From assembly GCA_964547875.1 (NCBI GenBank), contig CAZJPE010000001.1:38535-102534 (forward strand): DNA of 64,000 nt, given 5' to 3'. Below are positions 16,462 through 64,000 of the stretch, one piece after another. This stretch comes from Candidatus Woesearchaeota archaeon (GTDB taxonomy: Archaea; Nanobdellota; Nanobdellia; Pacearchaeales; GW2011-AR1). A model generated the notes under the pieces. It saw nothing but the letters and a program-made list of their open reading frames with translations, did not search any database and was not told the origin of the DNA. Numbering within the stretch: the stretch's first letter is position 1; each line of letters begins with the position of its first letter. The position numbers and the translations under genes were made by a program.

Positions 16462-16824
16462 GTGCTGGAGATAGAGATTAATATGAGATATCAGCTAGAC
16501 ATTAGGGGTGATGAATTCTTAGACTATGTTTTTGAAGGGCCTGATGATATTGCAGGCCTGATGAATTTTGCAAGCAGAATTGAGAAATTGAGGAATGTTG
16601 GATATAAATTTGCCGAACAGATATTATTGCCAGAATTCCTGAGTAGAAATAAAGTTCCAGAAGATATTGCAGAAGATGTGTGGATTCATATGGGTTATAT
16701 AAATAGAGAAGGTATTAATTCAGCTAGTTCGTATGAACAAATAGAAAAAATCGAGAGAGATTATAATTTAGGTAGAGGAAAGTTAATAGGGCTTTTAGAT
16801 GTGGCATTAGGTAAATACCCATAA
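16462..16824 (+). CDS. Hypothetical protein
   Basis: ORF only; acidic, no recognisable motif. Confidence 0.4.
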   Translation: MLEIEINMRYQLDIRGDEFLDYVFEGPDDIAGLMNFASRIEKLRNVGYKFAEQILLPEFLSRNKVPEDIAEDVWIHMGYINREGINSASSYEQIEKIERDYNLGRGKLIGLLDVALGKYP

Positions 16825-16838
16825 AATAAAGTAGAAAG

Positions 16839-29956: not shown

Positions 29957-31168
29957 ATGACTCTTGAAGACCAATTAAATGAACTTAGAAGAGGAACAGT
30001 AGACATTCTCACAGAAGAAGAATTAGTCAGAAAACTAAAACAAAATAGACCTCTTAATGTTAAATTTGGAGTTGACCCTACAGCTCCAGATATTCATCTT
30101 GGCCATACTGTACCTTTACAAAAATTGAAACAATTTCAAGACTTGGGGCACAGTATACAACTTATTATTGGGGATTATACGGCAATGATTGGCGACCCTA
30201 GCGGAAGAACTGAGACAAGACCAACGCTAAGTAGAGAAGAAATAGAAAGTAATATGGAAACCTATCAAAGACAAGTCTTTAAGGTTTTAGACCCTGATAA
30301 AACTAATTTGATATATAATAGCCAGTGGTTAGAAAAATTTTCTGGAACTGATGTTATTAAATTAGGTTCAAAATATACTGTTCAGCAACTTTTGCAAAGG
30401 AGAGATTTTGGAGAAAGAATAAAACAAAATAGACCTCTTAATGTTACCGAATTGTTATATCCTCTTCTCGTTGGCTATGATTCTATACACCTTAGAAGCG
30501 ATGTAGAAATTGGAGGAACTGATCAATTATTTAATTTTATGGCAAGCAGAGAAATACAAAAAGCATATGGGCAGGAACCAGAAGTAATTATAACACTTCC
30601 TTTGCTTGAGGGGGTAGATGGCGTAAGGAAGATGAGTAAAAGTCTTGGAAATGCTATAGGTGTAAGTGATGATCCTAATGACATGTATGGAAAAATAATG
30701 TCTATATCTGATGATTTAATGTTAAAATATTATGAGTTATTATCTGAAACTCCTCTAGAAGAATTTCAAGAAATTAGAGCAGCTATTGCTTCTGGAAATG
30801 TAAACCCTATGAAATATAAACAAAGATTAGCAAGGGAAATAGTCTCAAGATATCATGGACAAAATTTTGCAATATCTGCTGAAGAAAGATTTAATGGGGT
30901 GCATAGAAAAAGAGATACGCCAAGCCAATTGGAAGAGGAGATAATAAAGTACTCTGCGCATGAAGAAAAACTTCCAATTGTTACAGTCCTCAGGCAAATT
31001 GGAAGAGCAAAATCTAACAGTGAAGCTAGAAGGCTTATAGAACAAGGAGGAGTAAAGTTGGGTGGAGAGGTTATAAATGACATTAATTACTTTGTTTCTC
31101 CTCAAGATGGTCAAGTTGTTCAAGTTGGAAAAAGGTATTTTAGAAGGTTAAAATATGAAACAGACTAG
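29957..31168 (+). CDS. tyrS: Tyrosyl-tRNA synthetase, bacterial type (with C-terminal S4 domain)
   Basis: GVDPTAPDIHLGHTVPL (HIGH) and VRKMSKSLGN (KMSKS); colinear with bacterial TyrRS; C-terminal S4-like RRLIEQGGVKLGGEVIND. Confidence 0.8.
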   Translation: MTLEDQLNELRRGTVDILTEEELVRKLKQNRPLNVKFGVDPTAPDIHLGHTVPLQKLKQFQDLGHSIQLIIGDYTAMIGDPSGRTETRPTLSREEIESNMETYQRQVFKVLDPDKTNLIYNSQWLEKFSGTDVIKLGSKYTVQQLLQRRDFGERIKQNRPLNVTELLYPLLVGYDSIHLRSDVEIGGTDQLFNFMASREIQKAYGQEPEVIITLPLLEGVDGVRKMSKSLGNAIGVSDDPNDMYGKIMSISDDLMLKYYELLSETPLEEFQEIRAAIASGNVNPMKYKQRLAREIVSRYHGQNFAISAEERFNGVHRKRDTPSQLEEEIIKYSAHEEKLPIVTVLRQIGRAKSNSEARRLIEQGGVKLGGEVINDINYFVSPQDGQVVQVGKRYFRRLKYETD

Positions 31169-31215: not shown

Positions 31216-32349
31216 ATGGATTTCAAAGAAAAATTTGATTTAATAAAAAGGAATACTGAAGAAATTATGACTGAAGAAGATTTGAAAGTTCTTTTAGAGA
31301 GTGGAATTAAAGTTAAACATTATATTGGTTTTGAGATTTCTGGAAAGATTCATCTAGGTACGGGATTAATGTGCATGTCAAAAGTTAAAGACTTTATGGA
31401 TGCAGGAATTGATTGTTCAATTTTTTTAGCTGATTGGCATAGCTGGATAAATGATAAGCTTGGAGGAGATAGAGAAACAATAAAGAGAGTTGCTGGAGGA
31501 TATTTCAAAGAAGGGTTAAAAGCTAGTTTGAAATGTTTTGGAGGAAATCCTAATAAACTAAAATTTGTTCTAGGATCAGATTTATATCATAATAATGATG
31601 ATTATTGGTCCACTATGATAGAAGTTAGTAAAAATACTTCTCTTTCGAGGATGCAGAGAAGCATAACAATTATGGGAAGAAAAGAAGGAGGTTCAGTAGA
31701 TTTTGCAAAGTTGATCTATCCCCCTATGCAAGTTGCAGATATTTTTATCCAAGGAATAAATCTACCTCATGCGGGATTAGATCAAAGAAAAGCACAGGTT
31801 ATTGCAAGAGATGTTGCATTAAAAATAAAAAATAAACCTTTGTTAAATAAACAAAATGAATCAATGAAACCTGTTGCAGTTCATCATCATTTGATATTAG
31901 GGTTAGGGGAGCCACCAGTATGGCCCGTTCCAAAAGATCAACTCCAAGAACTGTGGCCTGCTCTAAAAATGAGTAAATCGAAACCAGATACATGTATATT
32001 TATTCATGATTCACCCGATGAGATTAGAAGAAAAATAAAACAAGCATTTTGTCTGGAGGGTGAAACAAAATTTAACCCCATTCTTGATTGGACAAAATAC
32101 CTTATTTTTAGAGATACGAACCCAAAATTAGAAATTAAAAGACCAGAAAAATTTGGTGGGAATATTACTTATACCTCCTATGAAAAGTTAGAAAGGGATT
32201 TTGCTGAAAAAAATCTTCACCCAATGGATTTGAAAAATGCAGTGGCAGAAAAATTAATCCAAATTCTTGAGCCAGCAAGGAAGCATTTTGAACAACCAAG
32301 GGTTAAAAAAATGCTTGAAGAGTTAGAGCAAATGATAATAATTAGATAA
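31216..32349 (+). CDS. Tyrosyl-tRNA synthetase, archaeal/eukaryotic type (HIGH motif degenerate to HLGT)
   Basis: Near-colinear with archaeal TyrRS: IKRNTEEI...YIGFEISGKIHLGTG, LADWHSWIN, KMSKSKP, IKRPEKFGGNITYTSYEKLERDFAEKNLHPMDLKNAVAEKLIQILEP. Recall-based comparison. Confidence 0.7.
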   Translation: MDFKEKFDLIKRNTEEIMTEEDLKVLLESGIKVKHYIGFEISGKIHLGTGLMCMSKVKDFMDAGIDCSIFLADWHSWINDKLGGDRETIKRVAGGYFKEGLKASLKCFGGNPNKLKFVLGSDLYHNNDDYWSTMIEVSKNTSLSRMQRSITIMGRKEGGSVDFAKLIYPPMQVADIFIQGINLPHAGLDQRKAQVIARDVALKIKNKPLLNKQNESMKPVAVHHHLILGLGEPPVWPVPKDQLQELWPALKMSKSKPDTCIFIHDSPDEIRRKIKQAFCLEGETKFNPILDWTKYLIFRDTNPKLEIKRPEKFGGNITYTSYEKLERDFAEKNLHPMDLKNAVAEKLIQILEPARKHFEQPRVKKMLEELEQMIIIR

Positions 32350-42293: not shown

Positions 42294-44183
42294 ATGACAG
42301 ACAAAAAAGATTATTCTGCAGAGAAGATTCAAGTATTAGAGGGGCTTGAAGCAGTTCGCAAACGTCCTGCTATGTATATAGGCAGCACTGGCAAGAGTGG
42401 ATTGCATCACCTAGTTTACGAAGTTGTTGATAATTCTGTTGACGAGGCAATGGTTGGATATTGTACAGAGATTGAAGTTATCTTGAATAAAGACGGAAGC
42501 GTGACTGTTATTGATAATGGTAGAGGCATTCCAGTTGATGTACATCCCATTTATAAAAGGCCTGCTTTAGAAATTGTCGTGACTAAATTACATGCTGGCG
42601 GGAAGTTTGACAAAGGAGTATATAGTGTATCAGGAGGCTTGCATGGAGTTGGAATAAGCGTAGTTGCTGCTTTATCCAAGCACATGGAAGTTATTGTAAA
42701 AAGAGGGGGCAAGAAATACAAGCAAGAATATAAAATCGGAAAGCCATTATATGACGTAAAAGTTGTTGGAGAGTCTTCAAAAGACGAGAGAGGGACAGAG
42801 GTTAGTTTTCTTCCTGATGATAGCATTTTTTCTGTTAGCAAATTTGATTTTTCTGTCTTAGAGACAAGATTTAGAGAGATTGCCTTTTTGAATAAAGGAT
42901 TGAAAATAATTTTGAAGGATGAAGCAACTGAAAAAAAAGAGGTATTTTGCTATGAAGGAGGCATTGTAGAATTTGTCAAATGGCTTAACAAGTCAAAGGA
43001 GTCTTTGCATAAAGCTATTTATTATTTAAAAGAAGACAGCGGAGTTATAGTTGAGTGCACTGTTCAGTACAATTCTGGCTATCAAGAGAATGTTTTGGGA
43101 TTTGTAAACACAATTAACACAGTAGAGGGGGGAACTCATATTATTGGCTTTAAGACTGCTTTGACAAGAGCGATTAATGATTATGCAAATAAGAATAAAT
43201 TGCTTAAGGATGGAAATTTAACTGGAGATGATGTCCGCGAGGGATTGACTGCTATTATTTCTACTAAAGTTCCAGAGCCGCAATTTGAGGGGCAGACAAA
43301 GACTAAATTAGGGAATAGCGAAATTAAAGGAATTGTTGATAAGATAAGCATGGCGGCTTTATCTGAATTTTTTGAGGAAAATCCTCCTATTGCAAGAAGG
43401 ATTGTTAATAAAGCATTAGAGGCGCAGAAAGCAAGAGATGCTGCGAAAAAAGCTAAAGAGCTAGTTAGGAGAAAGAGCGCATTTGGAGGGGGAGGTTTGC
43501 CTGGCAAATTAGCTGATTGCTCTGATAAAAAAGCTGAGAATACAGAATTATTTATTGTTGAGGGAGATAGCGCAGGAGGTTCGGGGAAACAGGCAAGAAA
43601 TAAAGAAAATCAAGCTATACTGCCTTTGAAAGGAAAGATATTAAATGTGGAGAAAGCAAACGCTGTGAAAGTATTGAGCAATGAAGAAATTTCTTCATTG
43701 ATTACTGCAATCGGGACAAGCATGGGCGAGCAGTTTGACATAACAAAATTAAGATATTCAAAAATAATTATTATGACTGATGCTGATGTTGACGGGGCGC
43801 ATATTAGGACTTTGTTGTTGACTTTTTTCTACAGATTTGTGCCTGACTTGGTTAAGAATGGAAATATCTACATTGCTGTCTCGCCTTTGTATAGAGTGAG
43901 AAAGAGAGGAGACCATTATATTTATTCTGACGAAGAGCTTAAGGAGATTAAGCAGAAGCTAGGGCATAATATTGACGTGCAGAGGTTTAAGGGACTTGGT
44001 GAGATGAATCCCCAGCAATTATGGGAGACAACTATGAATCCCAGAACAAGATTGCTGAAAAAAGTAACTGTTGAAGACGCTGCGCTGGCAGACGAGGTAT
44101 TTTCAAGATTAATGGGCGATGATGTTGAAGCGCGCAGGCAGTTTATTGCTTCTCGCGCGCATGAAGCAGAGGTGGATATTTGA
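42294..44183 (+). CDS. gyrB: DNA gyrase subunit B
   Basis: GLHHLVYEVVDNSVDEA (GHKL ATPase), EGDSAGG, PLKGKILNVEKA, KGLGEM (TOPRIM); 629 aa. Confidence 0.9.
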   Translation: MTDKKDYSAEKIQVLEGLEAVRKRPAMYIGSTGKSGLHHLVYEVVDNSVDEAMVGYCTEIEVILNKDGSVTVIDNGRGIPVDVHPIYKRPALEIVVTKLHAGGKFDKGVYSVSGGLHGVGISVVAALSKHMEVIVKRGGKKYKQEYKIGKPLYDVKVVGESSKDERGTEVSFLPDDSIFSVSKFDFSVLETRFREIAFLNKGLKIILKDEATEKKEVFCYEGGIVEFVKWLNKSKESLHKAIYYLKEDSGVIVECTVQYNSGYQENVLGFVNTINTVEGGTHIIGFKTALTRAINDYANKNKLLKDGNLTGDDVREGLTAIISTKVPEPQFEGQTKTKLGNSEIKGIVDKISMAALSEFFEENPPIARRIVNKALEAQKARDAAKKAKELVRRKSAFGGGGLPGKLADCSDKKAENTELFIVEGDSAGGSGKQARNKENQAILPLKGKILNVEKANAVKVLSNEEISSLITAIGTSMGEQFDITKLRYSKIIIMTDADVDGAHIRTLLLTFFYRFVPDLVKNGNIYIAVSPLYRVRKRGDHYIYSDEELKEIKQKLGHNIDVQRFKGLGEMNPQQLWETTMNPRTRLLKKVTVEDAALADEVFSRLMGDDVEARRQFIASRAHEAEVDI

Positions 44184-44750: not shown

Positions 44751-47700
44751 ATGACAGAAGAAAATAACGAAAAGAAAATTGACGAAGCGATTGAGGAAAA
44801 GGAAAGAGAGAGAAGGAAGAAGGACATGATTGAGAATGGCGTTCAGGGAACTGAAATAGTTGAGGAGATGGAAAAATCTTACATTGATTATGCGATGTCT
44901 GTGATTGTGCAAAGGGCGCTGCCTTCTGTTGAAGATGGCTTGAAACCAGTGCATAGAAGAATTTTGTATTCAATGGAGCAGCTTGGGCTTGATGCTTCAA
45001 AGCCTACAAAAAAATCTGCTACTATTGTAGGAGATGTTATTGGAAAATATCATCCTCATGGAGACATTGCTGTTTATGATGCGCTTGTTAGATTAGCGCA
45101 GGATTTTTCTTTGCGCTATCCTCTTGTGCATGGGCAAGGAAATTTTGGCTGCTTCACAGCAGATACAAAAGTTAAACTTGCTGATGGCAGAGATTTATCT
45201 TTTATTGAGTTGATTGAAGAAAACAATAATGGGAAAAGGAATTTCACATTTACAATAGATAATGGCATTGTTAAAATAGCAGAAGTAAAAAATCCTAGAA
45301 TGACTAAAAAAAATGCAGAGATTATGAAAGTTTTTCTTGATAATGGTCAGGAAATCAAATGTACATTAAATCATTTATTTATGTTAAAGGATGGAAGCTA
45401 TAAAGAAGCAAGAAATCTAAAATCTGGGGACTCGTTGATGCCTCTTTATACGAAACTATCTACTGAAACTGACAGCCTAAAGAATCCAAAAACCATTGGC
45501 TATTCGATGATATTTCAGCCAAAATTAAAATCTTGGAATTTTATTCATATATTGGCTGATGAGTGGAATTTAGATAATAAAATATATGCAGTAAATTCTG
45601 GCAGAATAAGACATCACATTGATTTTAATAAGTTAAATAATAATCCTATAAATATCAAAAGAATGCATTGGAAAGAGCATTGGCAGACACATTACAATTT
45701 AACTTCTTCAAGACATAAAAATGATTTAGATTATAGAAAGAAATTGGAAGAGGGAAGGAGAAGGTTTTGGAGCGACGCTAAAAATCGAGAAGTTTATTCT
45801 CAAAGAATGACTGAAAGAAATTTAGAGAATTGGAAAAAAAGCAGTTATAGAGAAGAAAAACGCATTCAACTTAGTGAAATTAATAAAAAATATTTTAAAG
45901 AGAATCCAGAAGCTATAGAAATAATAAGAAAAAGAGCTTCTATAACTATGAAAAAAATGTGGGAAATTCCAAGATATAAAGAACTTTTTCATGAAAAAAT
46001 TGTCGCTTCTAATAAAAATAGAAAATCAAATCTAACTGGAAAAAAGAAATTTTTAAAGATATGTAATTATTTGCTGACTAAGAATTTACCATTAACAAAA
46101 GAAAATTTTGAAAATATTAGACAAAATATTTTTGGAATAAAAAGCTTTACCAGTTGGAATCATGGAATTAAAAAACATTTTAATGGAGATAAAAATTTAA
46201 TTTTAAATGAATTAAATGGGAATCATAAGGTTGTAGATATAGAATTTATCAATCAACATACTAGCGTTTACGATCTAACAATTGATGATACGCATAATTT
46301 TGCCCTTTCGGCAGGGATTTTTGTGCATAATTCATTAGACGGAGATTCAGCTGCAGCCTATAGATATACAGAAGCACGATTGAGTAAAATCTCTCAAGAG
46401 CTTTTGGCAGACATTGACAAAGAAACTGTCAAGATGAATCCGAATTTTGATAATTCTACAAAAGAACCAGAGACATTGCCTGCTAAACTGCCTAATCTCT
46501 TACTAAATGGGGCGACTGGAATAGCAGTCGGCATGGCTACTAACATACCTCCGCATAATTTGATAGAGTTGTGCGATGCTATTATTGCGTATATTGACAA
46601 TTCAGATGTCAGTATAGATGAACTTTTGCAGATTGTTAGAGGACCTGATTTTCCAACTGGAGGACATGCAATGGGGCCTGGAATTTTAGAGATGTACAAA
46701 ACAGGAAAAGGAAGGATAGTCATGAGAGCTAGAACCTCAATAGAGGAGAAAAAGGGAAGAGAAAACATAATTGTTACAGAGATTCCTTATATGGTTAACA
46801 AGGCAGAGCTGGTTAAGGATATTGCGAGGCTTGCAAGCGAGAAGAGATTGTCTGACATTTCTGACATATGGGATGAATCTGCAAAGGGAAAGATAAGAAT
46901 TGTTATCGAATTGAAGAAAGGCGTTGATTCAAAATATACGATAAACAGATTATACAAATTGACTAATATGCAGACTAATTTTGACGCTAATGTTTTAGCC
47001 TTGGTTGGCAAACAGCCGAGAGTGCTGAATTTGAGGGATGTTATTGTTGAGTATGTTAAATACAGAAGAATGATTGTTACTAATAGAAGTAAGTTTGAAT
47101 TGAAGAAAGCAGAAGATAGATTAGAAATTGTTCTCGGATTATTGATAGCCTTAAAGAATATAGATAGCATTGTTGAGCTTATAAAAAAGAGCAAGACAGT
47201 CAGCGAAGCGCATGAAGGGCTTATGAAGAAATTTGATTTTAGCGACAGACAGGCAAGGGCTGTTTTAGAGACGAAATTGCAGCAGCTTACTTCATTAGAG
47301 CACACAAAATTAAAGGAAGAGGAGCAGAAGCTGAAAGAGACAATAGAATATCTGAAAAATGTTTTGGGCTCTGACAAAGAGATTTTGAAAATTATCAAGA
47401 AAGAGGTTAATGAGCTGAAGAAGGAATATGGAGATGAGAGGAGGACTAAGATCGTGAGAAAGATTGATGAAATTTCTGAAGGCGACTTGATTGAGAAAAA
47501 AGACGTTGTTGTTATGCTGACAAATTCTGGATATATCAAGAGAGTTGATCTTAAGACTTATAAAGAGCAGAAAAGAGGAGGGGCAGGCGTTATGGGTACG
47601 GGATTAAAGGATGATGATTTTGTGAGAAAGATGATTAGCTGTTCAACTCATGATTATTTGCTGTTCTTTACAAAAAGAGGCAGAGTTTACTGGCTTAAGG

Positions 47701-48464
47701 CGCATGACGCTCCTGCTGCAGAAAGACAGGGTAAAGGAAGAAGCATTGCAAACTTACTGAATTTAAGAGAGGAGGCAATTGCCAATGTTATGGCTATTAC
47801 TAACTTTGAATCTGGGTATTTAATGTTTGCTACAAAATTAGGAATTGTGAAGAGGCTGCCTTTAAAGGATGTTTCTAATCCCAGAAGCACGGGAGTTAGA
47901 ATAATGAATCTGCCTGCTGACGGGAGTGACGAGATAATTAATGTCAGCAGAGTAGAGGATGGGCAGGAAGTATTGATTATCACAAAGAAAGGACAGGCTA
48001 TTAGATTTAATTCCAATGATGTTAGGGCTATGGGTAGAGCGAGTTATGGAGTCAAAGGAATTGATTTAGCAAAGAATGATTTAGTTGTTTCTTTAATGGC
48101 TGTTCCTAAAGATGGAAAGACAACTGTTCTAACACTAACGGAAAAGGGATTTGGGAAGAGGTCTGATATTGTGGAATATAGAAAAACTGCGAGAGCTGGA
48201 AAGGGCGTTATTAATTTAAAGACAAATGACAAGACAGGAAGCGTTATTGCATCTGTAGCTGTGAATGACAAAGATTCTGTTATTATTACTACAACAAAAG
48301 GCAATATTATAAGAATTCCAATGAAGGACTTGAGGGTTATGGGGCGAGCAACTCAGGGAGTGAGAGCTGTAAAGCTCAAGGAAGGAGATAAGGTTGCCGA
48401 TGTTGTTCGAGTCCCTGTAATGATTGAAGACTCTCGTTTTGCTGATATGTTTAGTAATCTTTAA
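44751..48464 (+). CDS. gyrA: DNA gyrase subunit A interrupted by an in-frame intein (extein ~843 aa)
   Basis: [23 protein letters not shown], catalytic Tyr in [32 protein letters not shown]-terminal beta-pinwheel repeats. A 394-aa insertion sits between GQGNFG and SLDGDS. Confidence 0.9.
45150..46331 (+). mobile_element. Intein (394 aa) with HNH-type homing endonuclease inside gyrA
   Basis: Starts with Cys ([13 protein letters not shown], block A); block [13 protein letters not shown]-like [24 protein letters not shown]; blocks [24 protein letters not shown] followed by Ser+1. Confidence 0.85.
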
Positions 48465-54808: not shown

Positions 54809-55366
54809 TTAATCAATAATTAAAAAGTAAAAAATTATAGAAAGTAATATAAAAATAATTAATGGAATAATTATATAATATTTTAGCCTTGTTTTAGACA
54901 ATTTAATTAAATAAGCTCCTAAGAAAATTAAGAACAGGGGAGATAGTAAGGGCATCAAAAAGATTTGAGAATAATATAATATTCCTAATATTCCAGATAA
55001 AGGACGAAGAATGATTGGCTCAAAATAAATAATTGAGAAAAGAAAAAGAATAATAACTCCAGAAATTAGCGAAGTGATTCCCATGTGTTTTAATGATTTT
55101 TCTTCTCTTTCTTCAAATTTTATATTAGCTTTAAATTTAATAAATAAGAAAAATGTTATTATAGGTATGCTAGTTATTAGTAAATTCAAAAAATACCATT
55201 CAAATCCGCCCTCATGAGAGATTGAATTGATCCAAATAAAAAAATGTAGCATTCCAAATACTATACTCGTTATTAATAAAATCCAATATCTTATTCTAGG
55301 TAATTTTCTCTTTGGCTTAGCCATCTTAGTGCTTAGATTATTTTTATTTTTATCTCCATTTATCAT
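54809..55366 (-). CDS. Multi-TM membrane protein, candidate immunity protein for toxin 55369-56343
   Basis: 185 aa, 5-6 hydrophobic helices; starts 3 nt after the toxin stop. Confidence 0.5.
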   Translation of the reverse strand: MINGDKNKNNLSTKMAKPKRKLPRIRYWILLITSIVFGMLHFFIWINSISHEGGFEWYFLNLLITSIPIITFFLFIKFKANIKFEEREEKSLKHMGITSLISGVIILFLFSIIYFEPIILRPLSGILGILYYSQIFLMPLLSPLFLIFLGAYLIKLSKTRLKYYIIIPLIIFILLSIIFYFLIID

Positions 55367-55368: not shown

Positions 55369-56343
55369 TTATTTCCTACCTTCATAGGCATATATGACTC
55401 CGTCTGGCCCGGGATCTTCAGTTTTACTATAAGGTTTAGAAAACCAAGAACTAATCTGTTCTAAATATGAGTTTTTTGATAAAGAATCTATTGGTTTTGC
55501 TTCGCTATTTTCACTACTGGATTTTTCAAGCTCATCTCCAATATATTCAATTATATTGTTTTTCGTTGTTTTAATATTTTCACGTTTGAAATCAAAAATT
55601 AAATGTTTTATATGCTCCTTCTTTGTTGTTCCCCAATCAGGTCCTCCTTGATGTATTGTATCTCCAAAAACATGCAAATATCTTCCTGCTCCGTTGTCTC
55701 CTCTTCGATATGCTTGAACAAATTTCTGTGCATTTTGCCGGAGTATATTTTCCATATTTTCATTACTAATATCAGAAGCAAGGTGAAAGAATCTATGATT
55801 TTCAGTTTCGGTGTACGAGCGCAAAGGAGGAATGTCTGGTGTAATGGAATCCCATGCTAGTTTAAGCGACTCAATTCTTCCAAATCCCAGTTCTCTACTA
55901 GCGCCATATGTCCCTATAAAATGTATGTCAACTGTTGATTTTCCTGTCGGGTCTGTATATCTATACGGATTATTAAGCACATAAGAATAACAATTCAATG
56001 CCTGAGGATTATAAATATCTGGCTTGATTGTATCACATTGTGTAAACAACTTGATAAATGAACTATAATACCTCGCACCTAAATAATCTAAATCAACTAA
56101 CTTATCTCTCTCCTTGCCAGCAAACAAAAATCTACTTAATTCCAATCCAGAATAAATCTCTCCAAACGGCAAATAAAACTCTTCCTCAACAACATCTCCT
56201 GTCTGATTTGTAACTAATGTTGTGCTGCCTAAATGGTCATCATGATAAAATGTCTTTGCGCCTGAATTGTCTTTCTTCGCAATTAATTTATCATTCGCAT
56301 AATAATATGTTTCATTGAGGATAGTTCCGCTCATTATTTTCAT
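55369..56343 (-). CDS. Orphan RHS-tip toxin module (starts directly at the conserved tip, no N-terminal domain) with a C-terminal toxin domain of unknown activity
   Basis: MKIMS-GTILNETYYYANDKLIAKKDNSGAKTFYHDDHLGSTTLVTNQTGDVVEEEFYLPFGE...DLDYLGARYY...ALNCYSYVLNNPYRYTDPTGK is the RHS repeat-associated core ending; tail KPYSKTEDPGPDGVIYAYEGRK. Confidence 0.7.
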   Translation of the reverse strand: MKIMSGTILNETYYYANDKLIAKKDNSGAKTFYHDDHLGSTTLVTNQTGDVVEEEFYLPFGEIYSGLELSRFLFAGKERDKLVDLDYLGARYYSSFIKLFTQCDTIKPDIYNPQALNCYSYVLNNPYRYTDPTGKSTVDIHFIGTYGASRELGFGRIESLKLAWDSITPDIPPLRSYTETENHRFFHLASDISNENMENILRQNAQKFVQAYRRGDNGAGRYLHVFGDTIHQGGPDWGTTKKEHIKHLIFDFKRENIKTTKNNIIEYIGDELEKSSSENSEAKPIDSLSKNSYLEQISSWFSKPYSKTEDPGPDGVIYAYEGRK

Positions 56344-56352: not shown

Positions 56353-56709
56353 TTATTTTTCATCAACTAATTTTTCTTTCTCTAATATTTCTTTTAATTC
56401 CTTCTTTAATATTGGAATATCTTCATTAATTGTCTTCCAAATTATCCCAATATCAACACCAAAATAATGATGTATCATTTTATCCCTCATCCCTACTATT
56501 TTCTTCCATTCAATATTTTTATATTTATCAATAAATTCCGATGTTAGATTTTTAGCTGCTTCGCCTATTACTTCTATTCTCCTTATAGTAGCGTCCAATA
56601 TATCTCTATTATTCTCAAAATCTCTCTTTGAAAGATTCTTTATAGATTTTTCAATAAGGGTTATATTATCAAGTATATGACTAATAAATACTAAAGGATT
56701 CTTTCTCAT
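56353..56709 (-). CDS. HepT-like (DUF86) toxin of a HepT/MNT module
   Basis: RDKMIHHY gives the Rx4HxY catalytic motif; 118 aa. Confidence 0.8.
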   Translation of the reverse strand: MRKNPLVFISHILDNITLIEKSIKNLSKRDFENNRDILDATIRRIEVIGEAAKNLTSEFIDKYKNIEWKKIVGMRDKMIHHYFGVDIGIIWKTINEDIPILKKELKEILEKEKLVDEK

Positions 56710-56987
56710 ATTATCCTAATTTCCTCTTTAAGTATAGATTTCCTTAATAATGGATTTATTCCTTTATAAGTAAGCAAATCTACTTTTTTCTTTAGTTTTC
56801 TATTTAGTTCCATTTCTAATTCTATCAAACTCAATAAGCCTCCATTGAATTCTATTAAAATATCAATATCGCTATTTTTTTTAGCCTCGCCCCTTGCATA
56901 ACTGCCAAAAATTCCTGCCTTAGGTATATGATATTTTTTTAAGGTGCCTTTAATTTTTGATTTTATCTTGCTTATTTCATTTACCAT
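56706..56987 (-). CDS. MNT minimal nucleotidyltransferase antitoxin
   Basis: GIFGSYARGEAKKNSDIDILIEF = GSxxRG...DxD nucleotidyltransferase motif; 4-nt overlap with HepT. Confidence 0.8.
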   Translation of the reverse strand: MVNEISKIKSKIKGTLKKYHIPKAGIFGSYARGEAKKNSDIDILIEFNGGLLSLIELEMELNRKLKKKVDLLTYKGINPLLRKSILKEEIRII

Positions 56988-57074: not shown

Positions 57075-57554
57075 CTAATTTCCAGAATTATCTTTCTTTG
57101 CAACTAATTTACCATTTGCGTAATAATAAGTTTCATTTAATATTGTTCCATTGCTGTAACGAACTTGAATGAAATTGTCACTTATCTTATTTCTAAAATC
57201 AACAAATTCATCATAGATTATGTTTCTAAATCCAAAATCATAATTTTCATTATGAAATATAAAATGCAAAGAAATTCCTTGATTTAACCAATAGATATTT
57301 TGTTCTTCGTCATAAATGTAACCACTATCAAAATTTTTATCAGAATTATTTAATCCATAAATTGAGAATGTCAAACATTCTCCTAAAATATTATTTGTTA
57401 AATTATTTGAATGACAGATTATAGTGGATTGTGAATAGAAGTCTATTGTGTCGTTCCTTTCAGAGTTCTCTATGTTGTTTTGGGCAAGTGAGAGATTTAA
57501 TAATATGAGAATTAGGAAAATTGCTAAAATTATTTTTGGTAGATTAATATTCAT
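57075..57554 (-). pseudogene. Truncated toxin gene: Sec signal peptide plus N-terminal domain, ending 20 residues into the RHS-tip motif
   Basis: MNINLPKIILAIFLILILLNLSLA signal; ends ISDNFIQVRYSNGTILNETYYYANGKLVAKKDNSGN then stop, i.e. the same tip segment other array members continue through. Confidence 0.55.
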
Positions 57555-57559: not shown

Positions 57560-57823
57560 TTATATAATCATTAAAATTATTATTGCTATAATGATGAGAG
57601 ATATGCCTATTCCTGTAGCAGAATTTTTACTTGTTGGTGCGCCCCTAATCCATGCTTTTTTAGTTTTTATAGATTTTACGCCTCCATGTAAAAGCCATAC
57701 GCCAAATAATATTAAGATAATACTATATAAATTAACTTCTTTAAAAGAATAAGATTTTATGAATCCAATTATAAAATATATTAAGTCATATAACCAAATA
57801 AAATTACTTTTCTTTTTCACCAA
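57560..57823 (-). CDS. Small 2-TM membrane protein, candidate immunity for toxin 57827-59182 (non-ATG start)
   Basis: 87 aa; two TM helices; no ATG available near the start (TTG/GTG); starts 3 nt after the toxin stop. Confidence 0.45.
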   Translation of the reverse strand: MVKKKSNFIWLYDLIYFIIGFIKSYSFKEVNLYSIILILFGVWLLHGGVKSIKTKKAWIRGAPTSKNSATGIGISLIIIAIIILMII

Positions 57824-57826
57824 TTT

Positions 57827-59182
57827 TTATATACAGGACATTATAACCCCACATCCTCCTCTGTTGTTATTACTTCTTGACTGTTCTTTATTAGATTTTG
57901 AAGATATTGCATTATTTAAATTTCTTCCGCCTCTATTCGATTGTGAGTTAGAGTTTGTTTGTTTATTGGAAGAATCTACCGTTCCTTTAAATATAGATTC
58001 TCCAAATTCAGAATATCCAGATTGTGCTGTTTGAGATATCGCTTCGCTAAATGTAGCTTTTCCTAATTGTGAGGATGGATAAAATTGGCCAGGCGTTCTT
58101 CTTATTATGCCAGGAAGAGAACTTTGCGAGATTCTTGATGAAATTACAGAATTAAAAACGGCGGATGTTAAAATATCTCTGCCTGAAATCTCATTATACC
58201 CTCTTCCTTCCACTAAAGTCTCTTGAGCAAACTCTTGTCCAGCACCAATGCCTGCTAATGCTGTTGTTCTAATAGCAGTGCCAACACCTGCTGTTGCAAT
58301 ACTTCTAAGCCCACCACTAGCTATAGCCGCTACTGTTGTTCCAGGAGAAATTAGTATACTTGCAGCAGTCGCTCCACCAGCAATCGTTCCAGATAACACA
58401 GCTTTGCCTATATCCCCAGTTTGCTGATAAGTAATATAACCTTGGATGCCTCCTATGACTATTGCGGGCACAGCAACAACCAAGACAGGAATGTTTCCTG
58501 TCTCATCCGTATACTTATACGGATTATTCAAAACATAAGAATAACAATTCAATGCCTGTGGATTATAAATATCTGGCTTTATTGTATCACATTGAATAAA
58601 TAGACTAGCAAATGGATTATAATACCTTGCGCCCAAATAATCTAAATCAACTAACTTATCCCTTTCCTTGCCTGCAAACAAGAATCTGTTTAGTCCAAGA
58701 CCTGAAAATATCTTTCCGAACGGCTCATAGAAATTCTCTTCTACAATATTGCCAGATTGATTTGTTACTAATGTAGTGCTACCTAAATGATCTCCATGAT
58801 AATAATTCTTACTTCCAGAATTGTCTTTCTTAGCAACAAGTTTATCATTGGCATAGTAATAAGTTTCATTTAATATAGTTCCATTAGAATATCTAATTTG
58901 AATAAAATTATCAGAGATATAATAAGTAGTTGCGTTAATGCCTGTGCTATAATCATAATCTGCCTTCTTAACCCTATTTCCTTCTGCATCATAAGCATAT
59001 TGCTCTATTAATCTTCCATTTGTTGAGTTAGTTATTTTTGTTAATTGGTTAAATCCATCATAAGTATAGTTTTTATCAAATCCTGAAATGAGATTGCCAT
59101 TTGGGTCATAAGGAAAAGGAGTCCAGATAATTTCTCCTTCCTCAATATAATTATCTTCTTTCTGTATTGTTATGAGTTTCAT
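57827..59182 (-). CDS. YD-repeat/RHS-tip polymorphic toxin with glycine-zipper (membrane-active) C-terminal domain
   Basis: N-terminal MKLITIQKEDNYIEEGEIIWTPFP; YD repeats YTYDGFNQL / YAYDAEGNRV; RHS tip ...YYHGDHLGSTTLVTNQSG...DLDYLGARYY...NNPYKYTDETGN; then IPVLVVAVPAIVIGGIQG...TIAGGATAASILISPGTTVAAIASGG; tail RGGCGVIMSCI. Confidence 0.75.
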   Translation of the reverse strand: MKLITIQKEDNYIEEGEIIWTPFPYDPNGNLISGFDKNYTYDGFNQLTKITNSTNGRLIEQYAYDAEGNRVKKADYDYSTGINATTYYISDNFIQIRYSNGTILNETYYYANDKLVAKKDNSGSKNYYHGDHLGSTTLVTNQSGNIVEENFYEPFGKIFSGLGLNRFLFAGKERDKLVDLDYLGARYYNPFASLFIQCDTIKPDIYNPQALNCYSYVLNNPYKYTDETGNIPVLVVAVPAIVIGGIQGYITYQQTGDIGKAVLSGTIAGGATAASILISPGTTVAAIASGGLRSIATAGVGTAIRTTALAGIGAGQEFAQETLVEGRGYNEISGRDILTSAVFNSVISSRISQSSLPGIIRRTPGQFYPSSQLGKATFSEAISQTAQSGYSEFGESIFKGTVDSSNKQTNSNSQSNRGGRNLNNAISSKSNKEQSRSNNNRGGCGVIMSCI

Positions 59183-59692: not shown

Positions 59693-61051
59693 TTATGCAC
59701 AACTCATGATTTTGCCACATCCTTTATTTCTACTACCTTCAGATTTATCTTTATTATATGGTTTTTCAACTATTCTTTTATCATAGTTATATGTTTTATC
59801 TATTCCTGGAGAAATTGCCCAAGGAGATAGATCTCCCTTAGGAAAACTACTGCCTGCATTTTCTGTAGCAGTTCTTGCGAAAACATTTGAATTAGATCTA
59901 CTGCTACCTACTTTAGGGTTGAGAACATACGGCACCTTCGCTTCATTCAATTTGTTTCCTTCTGCTATAATATCATTAATAAATTCTGTATCTGTCTTTC
60001 CTTCTGGCGTATTCAATAATACATTGCTATATTCTTTAGTTCCTCCTGTTTTCTCCACATTCTTTCCAAATTGCAAAATACTATTAGGATTAAAAATTCC
60101 ATCTGAAGCATATGCCCCTAAATTGAAGTTGGTTTCTCCTCTAAAGTCTTCCGGATTATCAGGTATAACATTAAAGTAAGAATGAGTAGTATGACTTGTA
60201 ACAAAATTAGAGACCACTCTAAGAAAAAGAATATCACTATTTGCATATTGATTATTTATACTTCTTGTAACTAAATAAACCTCCTTGCCATTTGGGTCTA
60301 TGTATTTATAAGGATTGTTAAGCACATAGGCATAATGATTTAGATTTTGTGGGTTGAATATATTAGCTATCATAGAATCAGGAGAAATAAACATCCTCAT
60401 AATTGAAGCCTGATAATACCTTGCTCCATAATAATAAATATCAACTAATTTATCAAACTCTTGAGCCGTGAATAAATATCTTGAACTTTCACTTCCACTA
60501 TACACATCACCAAACGGCAAATAAAACTCTTCTTCTGTAATATTTCCTGTTTGATTAGTTACTAATGTAATAGAACCCAAGTGGTCAGAATGATAATATG
60601 TCTTTGCACCGCTATTATCTTTCTTTACAATTAATTTATCATTTGCATAGTAATATGTTTCATTTAATATTGTTCCGTTTGTATAGCGGATTTGAATGAA
60701 ATTGTCGCTAATGTAATAGGTTGTTTGATTATTTCCTGTTGTGTAATCATATTCTACTTTCTTTATTCTGTTGCCATCAGCATCATACCTATATTCTGCT
60801 ATAACATTTCCTGTGGCATTCTTCTTTCTAACTGAAGATAATTGATTGAATGGATCATACTCGTAATATTTGCCAAGTCCTTTTATTAAATTTCCATTTG
60901 CGTCATAAGTCATATCTGTGTTATAAGTTAAGAGATTTTCGTAATCTAAGGCGTATTCTAGATAGAGTTCTTCTTCGCTATTATATTTATTTTCTGATAA
61001 AAACGGCGTCCAGATTAGTATGTTATTTTTTGGGTTTGTTAGGATTTGCAT
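59693..61051 (-). CDS. YD-repeat/RHS-tip polymorphic toxin, C-terminal toxin domain of unknown activity
   Basis: N-terminal MQILTNPKNNILIWTPFL; YD repeats MTYDANGNL / YEYDPFNQL / YRYDADGNRI; RHS tip to NNPYKYIDPNGK; ~200-aa unique C-terminal domain; tail EKPYNKDKSEGSRNKGCGKIMSCA. Confidence 0.75.
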   Translation of the reverse strand: MQILTNPKNNILIWTPFLSENKYNSEEELYLEYALDYENLLTYNTDMTYDANGNLIKGLGKYYEYDPFNQLSSVRKKNATGNVIAEYRYDADGNRIKKVEYDYTTGNNQTTYYISDNFIQIRYTNGTILNETYYYANDKLIVKKDNSGAKTYYHSDHLGSITLVTNQTGNITEEEFYLPFGDVYSGSESSRYLFTAQEFDKLVDIYYYGARYYQASIMRMFISPDSMIANIFNPQNLNHYAYVLNNPYKYIDPNGKEVYLVTRSINNQYANSDILFLRVVSNFVTSHTTHSYFNVIPDNPEDFRGETNFNLGAYASDGIFNPNSILQFGKNVEKTGGTKEYSNVLLNTPEGKTDTEFINDIIAEGNKLNEAKVPYVLNPKVGSSRSNSNVFARTATENAGSSFPKGDLSPWAISPGIDKTYNYDKRIVEKPYNKDKSEGSRNKGCGKIMSCA

Positions 61052-61052
61052 T

Positions 61053-61304
61053 TTAAATAAAAGTCAGATATATTCCTAAAATGATTAAAATAATACCTAT
61101 ACAAATGCCTAATGGAGCAAAAAACTTTCTTATAATATTTGCCGCTTTATCTTCGCCAAAAATTTTTCTCCAAATAAAAGCTTTTGGGCTTTTCTTGACA
61201 TAATTCTCTAGAAACTTTTTATCTTTAATGGCTTTTGTCGCATAATAAAAGTTTATTACACCAGCTAATAAAATTAATAAAGAATAAGTGTTAAATTTAA
61301 TCAT
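61053..61304 (-). CDS. Small 2-TM membrane protein (extra/orphan immunity-like gene)
   Basis: 83 aa; sits between the barstar-like gene and the next toxin. Confidence 0.4.
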   Translation of the reverse strand: MIKFNTYSLLILLAGVINFYYATKAIKDKKFLENYVKKSPKAFIWRKIFGEDKAANIIRKFFAPLGICIGIILIILGIYLTFI

Positions 61305-61348: not shown

Positions 61349-61642
61349 TTATTTCTCAATCTTAAATTTTACATGATATTTATGATTTCTTATTATTTCA
61401 AGTATATTTTTTAAGAATTCTTCAGGCAATTCTTTTTTTGATTTATCAAAGTTTCTCCAAACTAAAATTATCTTTTCTTTGAACTCAAATTGGTATCCTC
61501 CATATAGGATATCGTCAAAAGCATCATAGTTTCTACCAAAACCTTTAAAATCATTAGTCAGCACACTTACTATCTCGTCATAAAATCCTTTTATATCATG
61601 AAAATTTTCTCCATCTATAATAAAAGTCTTTATTTTCTTCAT
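61349..61642 (-). CDS. Barstar-like RNase inhibitor (immunity protein)
   Basis: IIDGENFHDIKGFYDEIVSVL...FGRNYDAFDDIL...IILVWRNFDKSKKELPEEFLKNILEII is colinear with barstar ([21 protein letters not shown]...YGENLDALWDCL...LVLEWRQFEQSKQ). Confidence 0.8.
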   Translation of the reverse strand: MKKIKTFIIDGENFHDIKGFYDEIVSVLTNDFKGFGRNYDAFDDILYGGYQFEFKEKIILVWRNFDKSKKELPEEFLKNILEIIRNHKYHVKFKIEK

Positions 61643-62688
61643 TTCTTTTTAGAACCTCCAAAAACATTTTTAATCTTATCTACGATTTTAGTAAATGAAC
61701 TCTTTTCGTAATGCTTATCAGTATAATATGTTTCTCCGCCCTTACCAGTTATAACTCTTTCTGGATTTTTTCTACTAGTTACATCATGAGTTGTATAATA
61801 ACCTAGTTCTTGTTTTGGAAGTGCGCCCTCTACATTCTTAAATTCATGGGGTCTTAGCCCATCAGTCTTTCCACTTTGTATTTTATTAATTGTATCTTGG
61901 ACACTTTGAGGCAAATCGGATAACTTGGTTTCCTTTAATTTATCCGCGACATTTTCTGCGCCCTTCAAAGCATCTCCCACCTTCTCCCCGGTCTTAGCCA
62001 AATCAGCCACATCACTAACTCTATCAATTCCTTTAGCAACTCTAAATCCTGCCCCTAATCCAGTTACAAAAGGCAAGGCTGCTCCTGCAACATCTAAACC
62101 AAGAGCAACATAATTGGCAGAATTGTCAGGATCTTGAATAATGCTATAAATATCATATCCGATAAATCCTACATCGGCAACAGTTTCTATATAATGCCCA
62201 GTACCATCTTTGTATTTGTAGGGATTGTTTCTTGCATAATTATAACAGTTTAATTGTTGAGGATCGTAAATATCTGGCTTAATTGTATCACACTGTATAA
62301 ACAACCTCATAATAGAAGCTTGATAATACCTCGCCCCATAATAATACAAGTCAACAAGCTTATCAAACTCTTGAGCTGTGTATAAAAACCTAGATAATCC
62401 AGCTCCAGATAGTATATCGCCAAAAGGACCATAAAAGTTTTCTTCAACAATATGCCCACTCTGATTAGTAACTAAACTCGTACTACCTAAATGGTCTCCA
62501 TGATAAAATGTTTTTGCTCCTGAATTATCCTTTTTAGCAACTAATTTATCATTGGCGTAATAATATGTTTCGTTGAGAATTGTTCCGTTAGTGTTCTCAT
62601 CATTTAAAATATATTCCATATAAAATTCTTCTTGTGGCATTTGTGTCCAGATGAACTCGTTATCTTTTTCTATAATAATAGTTATCAT
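61639..62688 (-). CDS. RHS-tip polymorphic toxin with C-terminal barnase/RNase Sa-T1 family ribonuclease domain
   Basis: N-terminal MITIIIEKDNEFIWTQMP; RHS tip; C-terminal LPQSVQDTINKIQSG...FKNVEGALPKQELGYYTTHDV...ERVITGKGGETYYTDKHYEKSSFTKI aligns with RNase Sa (FQNRESVLPTQSYGYYHEYTV...RRIICGEATQEDYYTGDHYATFSLI). Confidence 0.8.
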   Translation of the reverse strand: MITIIIEKDNEFIWTQMPQEEFYMEYILNDENTNGTILNETYYYANDKLVAKKDNSGAKTFYHGDHLGSTSLVTNQSGHIVEENFYGPFGDILSGAGLSRFLYTAQEFDKLVDLYYYGARYYQASIMRLFIQCDTIKPDIYDPQQLNCYNYARNNPYKYKDGTGHYIETVADVGFIGYDIYSIIQDPDNSANYVALGLDVAGAALPFVTGLGAGFRVAKGIDRVSDVADLAKTGEKVGDALKGAENVADKLKETKLSDLPQSVQDTINKIQSGKTDGLRPHEFKNVEGALPKQELGYYTTHDVTSRKNPERVITGKGGETYYTDKHYEKSSFTKIVDKIKNVFGGSKKK

Positions 62689-63074
62689 TTTTTATCTACA
62701 TTTCTTAATTTTCTCATTAATTTAACAATTCCAAGACCTAAATAAAATCCAATTAATAAACCTGCTATTTTAATAACTAAAAAATCTCCCCAATAATATT
62801 TTAATAATTGCCAAGATATGATGGCTAGTAATATAGAAAATAACAATTCTCTTTCGTTAAGTGAGTTTTTGTTCATTTTAAAAAAGCCCCTTCCTTCTTT
62901 GGAATAGATTATCGATGTTACTAAAAATCCAAAGAATATACCGAGTATCATAATAATTGATCCAAAAATTATAATAAAGACTGGGCTACGCTTGCCTATG
63001 ATAGAGGCACCAATCGCAAGAATCAAAAAAGCAATCCCATACATTATTATTGTAACTATTTTTTCTTTATCCAT
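62685..63074 (-). CDS. 3-4 TM membrane protein, candidate immunity for toxin 63077-64000+
   Basis: The ATG (MDKEKIV...) lies 2 nt after the toxin stop; its end overlaps the next toxin start (ATGA). Confidence 0.5.
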   Translation of the reverse strand: MDKEKIVTIIMYGIAFLILAIGASIIGKRSPVFIIIFGSIIMILGIFFGFLVTSIIYSKEGRGFFKMNKNSLNERELLFSILLAIISWQLLKYYWGDFLVIKIAGLLIGFYLGLGIVKLMRKLRNVDKK

Positions 63075-63076: not shown

Positions 63077-64000
63077 TTATGCACAACTCATAACTTTATT
63101 GCAACCTCCATCTTGATTTTTTTCTGCTAAATTACTGCCTTTATTTATAGGTTTACTTCCATATCCATAAATTACACCATCAGGACCAGGATCTTGAGTC
63201 CTACTGAATGGTTTATTGAAGTTATATTCATTATAATAATCTTGTAACGTATTTTCTTTTATAAGTTTTGTGTTATCTAATTTCTCTTTTTCAAAATCTT
63301 CATCAGGTTCTCTATCTAATTCTCCAAAATCAAAAATAGGATATCCTTTACTCCACTGATAAGCTACTCCAACTTTTGCCAATATATTTGGATCATTAAG
63401 TCCCTGTGTAATAGGGTCGCCTTTTATAAAATTAGTAGTTATTTGGGTTGTTACAGTTTCTGTTATGATGGGGGCACCAACAGTTGCTATTGATGAACCT
63501 CCTGAAAGAATACCTGCTACAACAGTAGCTCCTGCAACTCCTCCTCCAGCCAAACCTGCGACAGCGGAATCTGTAATGTCCACCCAAGTAGCTTGCGGAT
63601 TATTTGCTGTATTAATGGCTCCTATAATCGCTCCAATGACAGCTCCCCCAACAACTATACTCGCCACAGTAATTGTTATCGGGTCTATTAAATTTCCACT
63701 CTCATCAGTATATTTGTAGGGATTATTCAAGACATAACTATAACAATTCAATGCCTGAGGATTATAAATATCTGGCTTAATTGTATCGCATTGAGTGAAT
63801 AATCTCATAATTGACGCTTGATAGTAACGAGCGCCATAATAATACAAATCAATAGCCTTGTCCAATTCCTTAGCTGTATAGAGGAATCTGCTTAATTCAG
63901 GCCCTATAAAGATATCTCCGAATGGACCATAGAAATTCTCTTCTGTTATATTCCCTGTCTGATTTGTCACAAGCGTTGTTGAACCAAGATGATCTGGATG
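63077..64000 (-). CDS. RHS-tip polymorphic toxin with glycine-zipper C-terminal domain (5' part outside window)
   Basis: Frame open to the window edge (…HPDHLGSTTLVTNQTGN…); RHS tip to NNPYKYTDESGN; ITITVASIVVGGAVIGAIIGAI...VAGLAGGGVAGATVVAGILSGG; tail KPFSRTQDPGPDGVIYGYGSK...GGCNKVMSCA. Confidence 0.7.
   Translation of the reverse strand, partial: HPDHLGSTTLVTNQTGNITEENFYGPFGDIFIGPELSRFLYTAKELDKAIDLYYYGARYYQASIMRLFTQCDTIKPDIYNPQALNCYSYVLNNPYKYTDESGNLIDPITITVASIVVGGAVIGAIIGAINTANNPQATWVDITDSAVAGLAGGGVAGATVVAGILSGGSSIATVGAPIITETVTTQITTNFIKGDPITQGLNDPNILAKVGVAYQWSKGYPIFDFGELDREPDEDFEKEKLDNTKLIKENTLQDYYNEYNFNKPFSRTQDPGPDGVIYGYGSKPINKGSNLAEKNQDGGCNKVMSCA

Follow-up and report, generated by a model that had tools for sequence, protein, structure and literature searches.

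What does a polymorphic toxin do when its variable end begins with a glycine-rich, hydrophobic stretch and the gene behind it encodes a small membrane protein? This question is raised by tox4 and imm4, two neighbouring genes on the minus strand of a 64,000-nucleotide (nt) stretch of DNA from a Candidatus Woesearchaeota archaeon. We refer to this whole stretch as the window; coordinates are positions in it unless a locus is named, "(-)" marks the minus strand, and L001, L019 and similar labels denote the metagenomic loci that were compared. Swappable toxin-antidote weapons are well known in bacteria but, to our knowledge, have barely been described in archaea. An earlier note on the window had pointed to toxins with C-terminal stretches dominated by G/A/I/V/T in GxxxG spacing, paired with small membrane immunity proteins and reminiscent of pore-forming or depolarising effectors. 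The best-supported reading of our data is related to this proposal: tox4 would be a membrane-inserting, membrane-permeabilising toxin and imm4 a small membrane protein that blocks it. We give this mechanism, which we infer, an even chance of being right. It rests on a hydrophobic hairpin, the lack of an enzymatic signature, a membrane-embedded cognate immunity protein and precedent.

tox4 has the build of an RHS/YD polymorphic-toxin cassette. It carries RHS repeats (PF05593 RHS_repeat, 7.5e-7; TIGR01643, 19.8 bits, cutoff 15.8) and an Rhs-associated core, it is variable past the core motif, and a cognate immunity gene lies downstream (Table 1). The protein is identical to P0001 of a public collection, its ATG start overlaps the preceding stop codon, and the open reading frames (ORFs) of both tox4 and imm4 are intact. 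The end of the core, NNPYKYTDETG, is the presumed autoproteolytic boundary, cleavage being extrapolated from RHS/TcC proteins (PMC10684867). Directly behind it, amino acids (aa) 230-318, here called module 1, are composed of Gly, Ala, Ser and Thr to 53% and of Ile, Val and Leu to 29%, with 5 charged residues in 89; Gly, Ala, Ser and Thr account for 25% of the first 229 aa. The hydrophobic stretches reported earlier for tox4 and for a second toxin, tox1, were indeed present, with their ORFs and quoted peptides in place, and span 89 aa in tox4 and 80 aa in tox1 by composition. They do not form the extreme C-terminus, as had been stated. Each follows directly on the core motif NNPYKYTDE[TS]G, and about 130 more residues come after it.

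Module 1 is predicted to form a helical hairpin, in which H1 (aa 232-255) and H2 (aa 258-278) are joined by the conserved turn ITYxQTGD. Both helices are uncharged, with a mean Eisenberg hydrophobicity of 0.53-0.56 and a low hydrophobic moment, and one Kyte-Doolittle transmembrane (TM) candidate in module 1 reaches 2.0. The helices after H2 are weakly amphipathic, and module 2 has the consensus ES.AQQTLV.GR..NELSY..I..SA..N...PG.ISR..GQFYPS..G...E.GSQ...S.YSE. An AlphaFold2 model of the tox4 C-terminus, built on a 9-sequence alignment, contains five helices at a predicted local distance difference test (pLDDT) score of 42.8, and going by this model the C-terminal family is probably all-helical. 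TM prediction, which had been proposed as a check together with structure prediction, thus returned a hydrophobic hairpin; the structural half of that check ended in a low-scoring model.

Searched exhaustively with HMMER, 1.84 billion cluster representatives yielded tox4 itself and eight homologous clusters (E 7e-25 to 9e-4), most of which are C-terminal regions of RHS/YD-shell proteins. The nine members (alignment A3) are about 35-45% identical, and conservation spans about 175 aa in two parts, module 1 and module 2, which are kept together in 7/9 members. One member, P0007, matches query residues 86-172 only and therefore has module 2 without module 1, placed behind unrelated ordinary TM helices. 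Most conserved positions hold Gly, Pro or a small residue, only Gly and Pro are invariant, and this set does not look catalytic. A tail GC[GE]V[ILY]xSC stands at the very C-terminus in five of the nine members, after a non-conserved S/N/G-rich linker. Word-indexed searches with the tox4 C-terminus and with the family alignment returned little or nothing, and the tox4 C-terminal region had no Pfam, NCBIfam or PDB sequence match. The Pfam families Gly-zipper_Omp/YMGG/OmpA, PT-TG, Colicin and Bacteriocin_IIc gave no match at E<=0.1 with the whole proteins or at E<=5 with the 9 family members, and the best hits of the tox4-family profile among all PDB chain sequences were unrelated enzymes (E 0.18). 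A candidate similarity between the tox4 family and L010 1078 was not significant and concerned the tail only. Judged from these comparisons, tox4 aa 230-404 constitute a rare, unclassified conserved family and not a low-complexity linker, and by sequence tox4/imm4 belongs to no toxin family described so far. The soluble low-complexity linker that the earlier note had named as the finding that would speak against a membrane toxin is confined to aa 405-441.

The product of imm4 has two clear TM segments and one weaker segment on the Kyte-Doolittle scale, and a conserved juxtamembrane motif, G[LV]KSI[QK]TKKAW[IL]RG. In at least five loci (L007, L008, L010, L011 and L013) a tox4 homologue is immediately followed by an imm4 homologue, and we therefore regard tox4 and imm4 as a cognate toxin-immunity pair. 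Pairwise BLASTP connects imm4 with the L011 protein at 9e-13, and a profile built without imm4 recovers it at E=1.2e-11 as the window's only match (1300 ORFs, all loci). In L010 and L011 the imm4-family protein consists of two tandem copies of the unit, and in L010 each copy is matched by imm4. The duplicated proteins (L010/L020 10945-11460; L011 2464-2952) have 4-5 TM segments, and each half keeps the KKAW motif. The co-occurrence of the two families across independent loci bears out the proposed pairing of these toxins with small membrane immunity proteins. The TM counts agree as well with the 2-4 segments given before, with 2-3 in imm4 and 3-4 in imm1, the protein encoded behind tox1 (Kyte-Doolittle).

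The second pair, tox1/imm1, is analogous to tox4/imm4 and not homologous to it. The full tox1 gene lies at L019 6244-9612. In the first 80 aa after its core, Gly, Ala, Ser and Thr make up 51% and Ile, Val and Leu 33%, with 4 charged residues. A homologue of imm1 (L001 2772-3212, E=2e-6) occupies the immunity position of a zipper-type cassette in a Nanoarchaeota array; the toxins paired with imm1 and with this homologue share no detectable similarity. Homology between the zipper domains of tox4 and tox1 was rejected, as the tail alone matches. Similarities of tox1 to L001 1316 (E=0.078) and to the module of a colicin-D cassette discussed below (E=0.32) were not significant, and one to microcin E492 was not supported. 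A word-indexed search with the tox1 C-terminus gave little or nothing, which is a weak negative, since tox1 itself was not recovered.

We scored glycine zippers by a published definition, in which a strict motif is (G/A/S)xxxGxxxG or GxxxGxxx(G/S/T) (PMC12744356). Two such motifs, AIVIGGIQG and AVLSGTIAG, are found in tox4, which makes it a glycine-zipper protein by this definition, and tox1 has four. Their density is 2.2-5.0 per 100 aa in tox4 and tox1 versus 0.28 in other long ORFs of the window. A strict motif recurs at about the same H1 position in 7/7 homologues with module 1 and at about the same H2 position in four of eight module 1 sequences, three of the seven homologues among them, and this positional conservation seems more telling than counts against shuffled sequences. 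The GxxxG spacing claimed earlier consequently stands in part: tox1 marginally exceeds its shuffles (mean 1.2, P=0.04) and the H1 position is conserved, while the tox4 count does not rise above chance. In our own tally a membrane immunity protein accompanies 11/12 zipper-type C-termini versus 4/8 non-zipper ones, among 20 non-identical cassettes with an assignable downstream gene that are not phylogenetically independent. Scans for the RHS core end gave 6 and 4 loci, and cassette statistics rest on about 20 non-identical cassettes.

How could such a pair work? The C-terminal region would be cut off at the Rhs core motif, and the shell would release it at a target cell, where the hairpin of module 1 would enter the cytoplasmic membrane. 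Zipper-mediated packing of helices would then yield an oligomer that conducts ions or disrupts the membrane in another way. Producer cells and their kin would be protected by imm4: with its 2-3 TM segments it would bind the toxin helices within the bilayer and block assembly. We infer this whole chain, from autocleavage and delivery through membrane insertion and depolarisation to the mode of immunity. Polytopic membrane proteins are the immunity partners of almost all channel-forming effectors (PMC12744356). The idea of a pore-forming or depolarising toxin neutralised in the membrane gains from the uncharged hairpin and the residue set that does not look catalytic; it gains nothing from homology, as the two zipper domains are not homologous to each other and no known pore-former is matched.

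Several observations weigh against a tox4 that kills by permeabilising membranes. The standard TM hydropathy threshold is passed by H1 only, the AlphaFold2 model is unreliable at its pLDDT of 42.8, and Pfam and PDB sequence searches detected no homology to known pore-formers. The two strict motifs of tox4 compare with a composition-shuffle mean of 1.6, which is not significant (P=0.48). Furthermore, tox4 is an orphan without a secretion signal of its own. imm4 starts with TTG or GTG and has no ATG, and the source annotation missed it and called a 53-aa antisense ORF instead; expression of imm4 can therefore only be presumed. Since P0007 combines module 2 with ordinary TM helices, module 1 may be only an anchor or an entry device. 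Finally, the cassette at L001 5502-7064 has an RHS core, a GNIP start, a hydrophobic helix, a TG-type turn and a Gly/Ala zipper, and then continues into a Colicin_D domain.

The last two observations belong to the alternative that survives best, namely that module 1 is a pre-toxin module for membrane entry or translocation and not the killing part. The effector would then be module 2 in tox4 and the acidic C-terminal half in tox1, and the membrane immunity protein would block entry or bind the effector at the membrane. The Colicin_D domain of the L001 cassette (PF11429, 4.9e-16) comes with a soluble colicin-D immunity protein (PF09204, 3.2e-14), and its zipper module is weakly similar to tox4 module 1 (BLASTP 5e-4 over 103 aa; hhalign 80% probability over the first 45 aa). 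A zipper module thus stands before a colicin-D tRNase with soluble immunity, so that such modules can have a pre-toxin or entry role. There is precedent too: the DNase effector Tde1 needs a glycine zipper for translocation into target cells (PMC10240207), and CdiA C-terminal regions contain separate entry domains (PMC11630599). However, module 2 has no recognisable enzyme signature, and toxins with a cytoplasmic action seldom have a membrane-embedded immunity protein (PMC12744356). In the other nuclease cassettes of these arrays the pre-toxin segment is normally of another type, VADVxFIGYDIY, and the immunity proteins are soluble. The joint conservation of modules 1 and 2, together with the membrane immunity protein, favours an action of tox4 at the membrane. 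We consider module 1 as a mere entry device to be a serious possibility, but a rather improbable one.

A toxin could also act at the membrane without making pores, by binding or inhibiting a membrane component that the cell cannot do without, for example a transporter, lipid carrier or envelope assembly protein, with imm4 competing for the toxin or shielding its target. Class II bacteriocins, which jam their receptor, offer a comparison. The evidence for a membrane location serves this explanation as well as membrane permeabilisation, and the polar motifs of module 2 (PG.ISR..GQFYPS) resemble a binding surface more than a lipid-facing helix. In addition, the neighbouring toxin tox3, which is not hydrophobic, shares its tail with tox4 and has an immunity protein with 4 TM segments, and membrane immunity in the array is therefore not limited to hydrophobic toxins. 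Nevertheless, no candidate target is known, and those glycine-zipper toxins that have been tested, TelE, EsxX, TspA, Tse4 and the ionophores of contact-dependent growth inhibition (CDI), depolarise or permeabilise membranes (PMC12744356, PMC10434224, PMC11630599), which makes inhibition of a specific component unlikely in our view. We hold it to be very improbable that tox4 is a decaying orphan cassette without present function and its Gly/Ala-rich stretch a hydrophobic or low-complexity spacer: the missing signal peptide, the non-ATG start of imm4 and its omission by the source gene caller, the truncated cassette at 57075-57554 beside a HEPN/MNT pair and a DNA identity of 67-84% between cassette cores would fit decay, but both ORFs are intact with the tox4 ATG overlapping the preceding stop, homologues of both genes in other genomes are under evident purifying selection with motif positions kept, and the tail is conserved as protein with different codons (TCC versus AGT).

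The surroundings of the pair are best explained as the distal portion of an RHS polymorphic-toxin locus in a DPANN archaeon. Between 54.8 and 64.0 kb (-), a row of ORFs shares a near-identical stretch, GTILNETYYYANDKL...NNPYKYxDxxG, and then diverges completely; the cassettes can be aligned up to NNPYKYxDxxG and not beyond (alignments A1 and A2), and mean column identity over the 130 aa before the core motif is 84% in four of them. The Rhs-associated core is also present in tox1, tox3 and tox6, and within a few bases after each RHS cassette ORF a small gene follows. An orphan cassette consists of the last ~130-250 aa of an RHS shell with the core, its own C-terminal toxin and its own immunity gene. 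The tox2 cassette, with its barnase-like end and barstar gene, is unambiguous, and therefore the order in the array is RHS end, variable toxin, immunity gene. Two large genes lie just past the window end at 64000, at 1685-9612 of locus L019, the 290-kb metagenomic contig that contains the window. One encodes a TcB-like protein of 1520 aa with a signal peptide, FG-GAP repeats, TcdB_toxin_midN and RHS repeats. The other encodes the 1122-aa TcC-like protein, with an N-terminal signal or anchor, a LamG domain, a YD shell and tox1 as its C-terminus. The genes overlap by 4 nt, and the best explanation is that both proteins would together build the RHS/YD cocoon. Within 1.7 kb upstream of the TcB-like gene we saw nothing that resembles TcA. 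Metagenome-assembled genomes labelled Nanoarchaeota or Woesearchaeota carry the closest relatives of the RHS core (64-92% identity); L001, one of them, has an array of the same build. Kae1 matches the archaeal equivalog TIGR03722 (423 bits, cutoff 375), in line with an archaeal organism.

The tox3 and tox6 C-termini are not hydrophobic, yet proteins with 4-5 TM segments occupy their immunity positions; both toxins may be extracytoplasmic or membrane-directed enzymes. Between the barstar gene and the next cassette, 61053-61304 encodes a protein of 83 aa whose C-terminal part contains one strongly hydrophobic segment or more; this may be an orphan immunity gene. The truncated cassette at 57075-57554 consists of a signal peptide and an RHS fragment that ends at KKDNSGN, and its full-length L001 counterpart continues with a glycine-zipper module and then colicin D. 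Next to it, at 56353-56987, is a nucleotidyltransferase/HEPN (MNT/HepT-like) pair, and this arrangement suggests that DNA was inserted or deleted within the array.

Toxins of this array that are otherwise unrelated have common endings. The C-terminal regions of tox1, tox3 and tox4 all finish with G-C-x-x-[IV]-M-S-C-[AI], and C-x5-C tails also occur at L001 1322-2770 and in L008, L009, L010 and L014. Across all sequence compared, C-x5-C-x(0-2) ends 13 of 661 ORFs of at least 60 aa; without exception these 13, of which 10 are non-identical, encode toxin C-terminal regions of the RHS arrays, including those of the tox4-family members P0007 and P0009. Some toxins carry the tail twice (L001: GCGFTMSCGSGCGSFMSCGH). 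The Ser codon differs among the tails of tox1, tox3 and tox4 (TCC versus AGT), which argues for selection on the peptide. By our own tally, tail-bearing toxins all come with a membrane immunity protein and the tail is absent from every nuclease cassette, an association we take as a lead and not as a result given the small sample of related members. A second motif, KP[FY]S[RK]T[QE]DPGPDGVIY[AG]Y, is common to the end of tox6 (55369-55430), tox1 (about 63160-63220) and L001 20-607, again near the ends of otherwise unrelated C-terminal regions; seven of the nine core codons of the DPGPDGVIY block differ synonymously between tox1 and tox6, which likewise points to selection on the peptide. A DNA recombination site, at the tail or the DPGPDGVIY block, was considered and rejected, as most synonymous codons differ and the immunity gene lies beyond the block. 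A ribosome-binding site formed by the tail-coding GGAGG was also rejected, since the distance to the start codon is ~27 nt and in tox3 the position is taken by AAAGG.

The tail and the DPGPDGVIY block may form a disulfide-closed loop, or may be signals by which toxins with an action outside the cytoplasm are matured or targeted. We also considered the zipper hairpin and the endings jointly. The hairpin would be a self-inserting, general device by which archaeal RHS toxins enter or cross the single membrane of archaea, and one that carries a nuclease (colicin D) in some cassettes and may have become the weapon itself in tox4 and tox1. The shared extension, made up of the low-complexity linker and the G-C-x5-C tail, sometimes duplicated and sometimes placed after DPGPDGVIY, would be a new maturation or targeting signal of toxins with an action from outside the membrane, and may provide a disulfide-closed heptapeptide loop or an attachment site for a lipid or a receptor. 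This combined proposal is speculative, and we think it improbable that both of its halves hold.

If tox4 permeabilises membranes, the pair would work like an Rhs pore-former with membrane immunity or like a CDI ionophore with its CdiI protein. Tse5 of Pseudomonas aeruginosa is an Rhs protein with a pore-forming C-terminal fragment and the membrane-bound immunity protein Tsi5 (PMC10684867, PMC12744356). Tse5 and tox4 have in common that the toxin is derived from the C-terminus of an RHS cocoon protein, is hydrophobic, non-enzymatic and predicted to be helical, and is paired with an immunity protein in the membrane. In contrast, no sequence similarity was detected (PDB chains, none below E=0.18), Tse5 belongs to a type VI secretion system (T6SS) with PAAR or VgrG whereas Sec signals on TcB/TcC-like proteins are found here in an archaeon, and module 2, the low-complexity linker and the Cys tail are extra in tox4. 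CDI ionophores pair with CdiI proteins that are two-helix hairpins of 72-100 aa (PMC11630599). These toxins (CdiA-CT EC93 type) are polymorphic, highly divergent and helical with a glycine zipper (PMC11630599), and the size of their immunity proteins compares with the 87 aa and 2-3 TM segments of imm4. Their two-part logic of entry plus ionophore could apply to tox4 as well. Differences are that the carrier here is RHS and not CdiA with a VENN motif, that no homology was found, that some imm4 relatives are tandem duplications of the unit, and that the five-helix prediction for tox4, to be compared with the five-helix membrane-spanning bundle of the ionophores, is of low confidence.

More distant parallels concern parts of the system. 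In the LXG toxins TelE, EsxX and TspA of type VII secretion systems, a zipper of the same definition is the suspected toxic element and a membrane immunity protein acts against an extracellular toxin (PMC10434224, PMC12744356). They are bacterial and use an LXG instead of an RHS carrier, and their zipper lies near the C-terminus, whereas here it follows the RHS core with about 130 residues behind it. In the T6SS DNase Tde1 (PMC10240207), to be compared together with the cytoplasm-entry domains of CdiA C-terminal regions, the zipper is N-terminal to a nuclease, as in the colicin-D cassette of L001; tox4 and tox1 differ in having no recognisable nuclease behind the zipper and in their membrane-embedded immunity proteins. 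The Tc-toxin TcB/TcC cocoons and Sec-dependent RHS toxins such as Bacillus WapA resemble the locus in the TcB/TcC-like split, the hypervariable C-terminus, the N-terminal signals and the downstream orphan cassettes. The locus differs from them in the LamG domain of its TcC-like protein, in its archaeal host and in that no TcA-like gene was seen in the 1.7 kb before the TcB-like gene. New here are the toxin family, the immunity family, a DPANN host with Sec-signalled TcB/TcC-like carriers, and the shared C-terminal motifs.

Table 1. Positions of the toxin and immunity genes of the array and of their parts in the window.
Feature	Positions	Strand	Evidence or remark
tox4, orphan RHS C-terminal cassette ORF, 451 aa; YD/RHS repeats, Rhs-associated core, variable toxin region	57827..59182	-	
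tox4 Rhs-associated core, aa 152-229, end NNPYKYTDETG	58496..58729	-	TIGR03696, 57.1 bits (cutoff 32.5)
tox4 module 1, aa 230-318, Gly/Ala/Ser/Thr and Ile/Val stretch	58229..58495	-	
tox4 module 2, about aa 319-405, conserved, polar, weakly amphipathic	57968..58228	-	alignment A3
tox4 low-complexity S/N/K/R-rich linker, about aa 405-441	57860..57967	-	mean Kyte-Doolittle hydropathy -2.1; not conserved in A3
tox4 C-terminal tail GGCGVIMSCI, C-x5-C and one residue	57830..57859	-	
imm4, 87-aa membrane protein, predicted cognate immunity protein of tox4	57560..57823	-	
tox1, C-terminal 307 aa of the 1122-aa TcC-like main RHS protein; ORF runs past the window	63077..64000	-	
tox1 zipper stretch, first 80 aa after NNPYKYTDESG	63458..63697	-	four strict motifs
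tox1 tail GCNKVMSCA	63080..63106	-	
imm1, 129 aa, 3-4 TM segments, directly downstream of tox1	62685..63074	-	
tox2, orphan cassette, barnase-like RNase C-terminus	61639..62688	-	PF00545, 5.4e-11
barstar-family immunity gene of tox2	61349..61642	-	PF01337, 7.7e-14
tox3, orphan cassette, non-hydrophobic C-terminus of an unclassified family	59693..61051	-	
tox3 tail GCGKIMSCA	59696..59722	-	
imm3, 170 aa, 4 TM segments, downstream of tox3; stop overlaps tox4 start codon	59179..59691	-	
tox6, unclassified C-terminus, end motif DPGPDGVIYAYEGRK	55369..56343	-	
imm6, about 5 TM segments, downstream of tox6	54809..55366	-	

Outside the array, a few other genes of the window caught our attention. Two tyrosyl-tRNA synthetase genes lie side by side at 29957-31168 and 31216-32349. 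One of the two enzymes is bacterial-type with an S4 domain (TIGR00234, 368 bits), and the other matches NF006330 (433 bits), which we take to be the archaeal/eukaryotic-type model. The DNA gyrase A gene at 44751-48464 is interrupted by an intein (PF14890, 5e-20), with gyrB upstream at 42294-44183. A cluster of MoxR AAA ATPase, DUF58 and VWA genes at 12221-17762 has a DDE transposase ORF (15155-16048) inside it.

Many small-genome DPANN archaea are thought to live attached to host cells, and very little is known to us about how archaea, and DPANN in particular, fight or control their neighbours. The locus described here offers a concrete toxin-immunity pair that would have to act on an archaeal ether-lipid membrane, and it adds an unclassified toxin family and an immunity family to the catalogue of polymorphic toxins. 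If the mechanism is ordinary pore formation, the pair would be a routine extension of Tse5-like or CDI-ionophore-like biology to archaea. The G-C-x5-C and DPGPDGVIY motifs, in turn, could reveal how the toxins of these arrays are matured or targeted.

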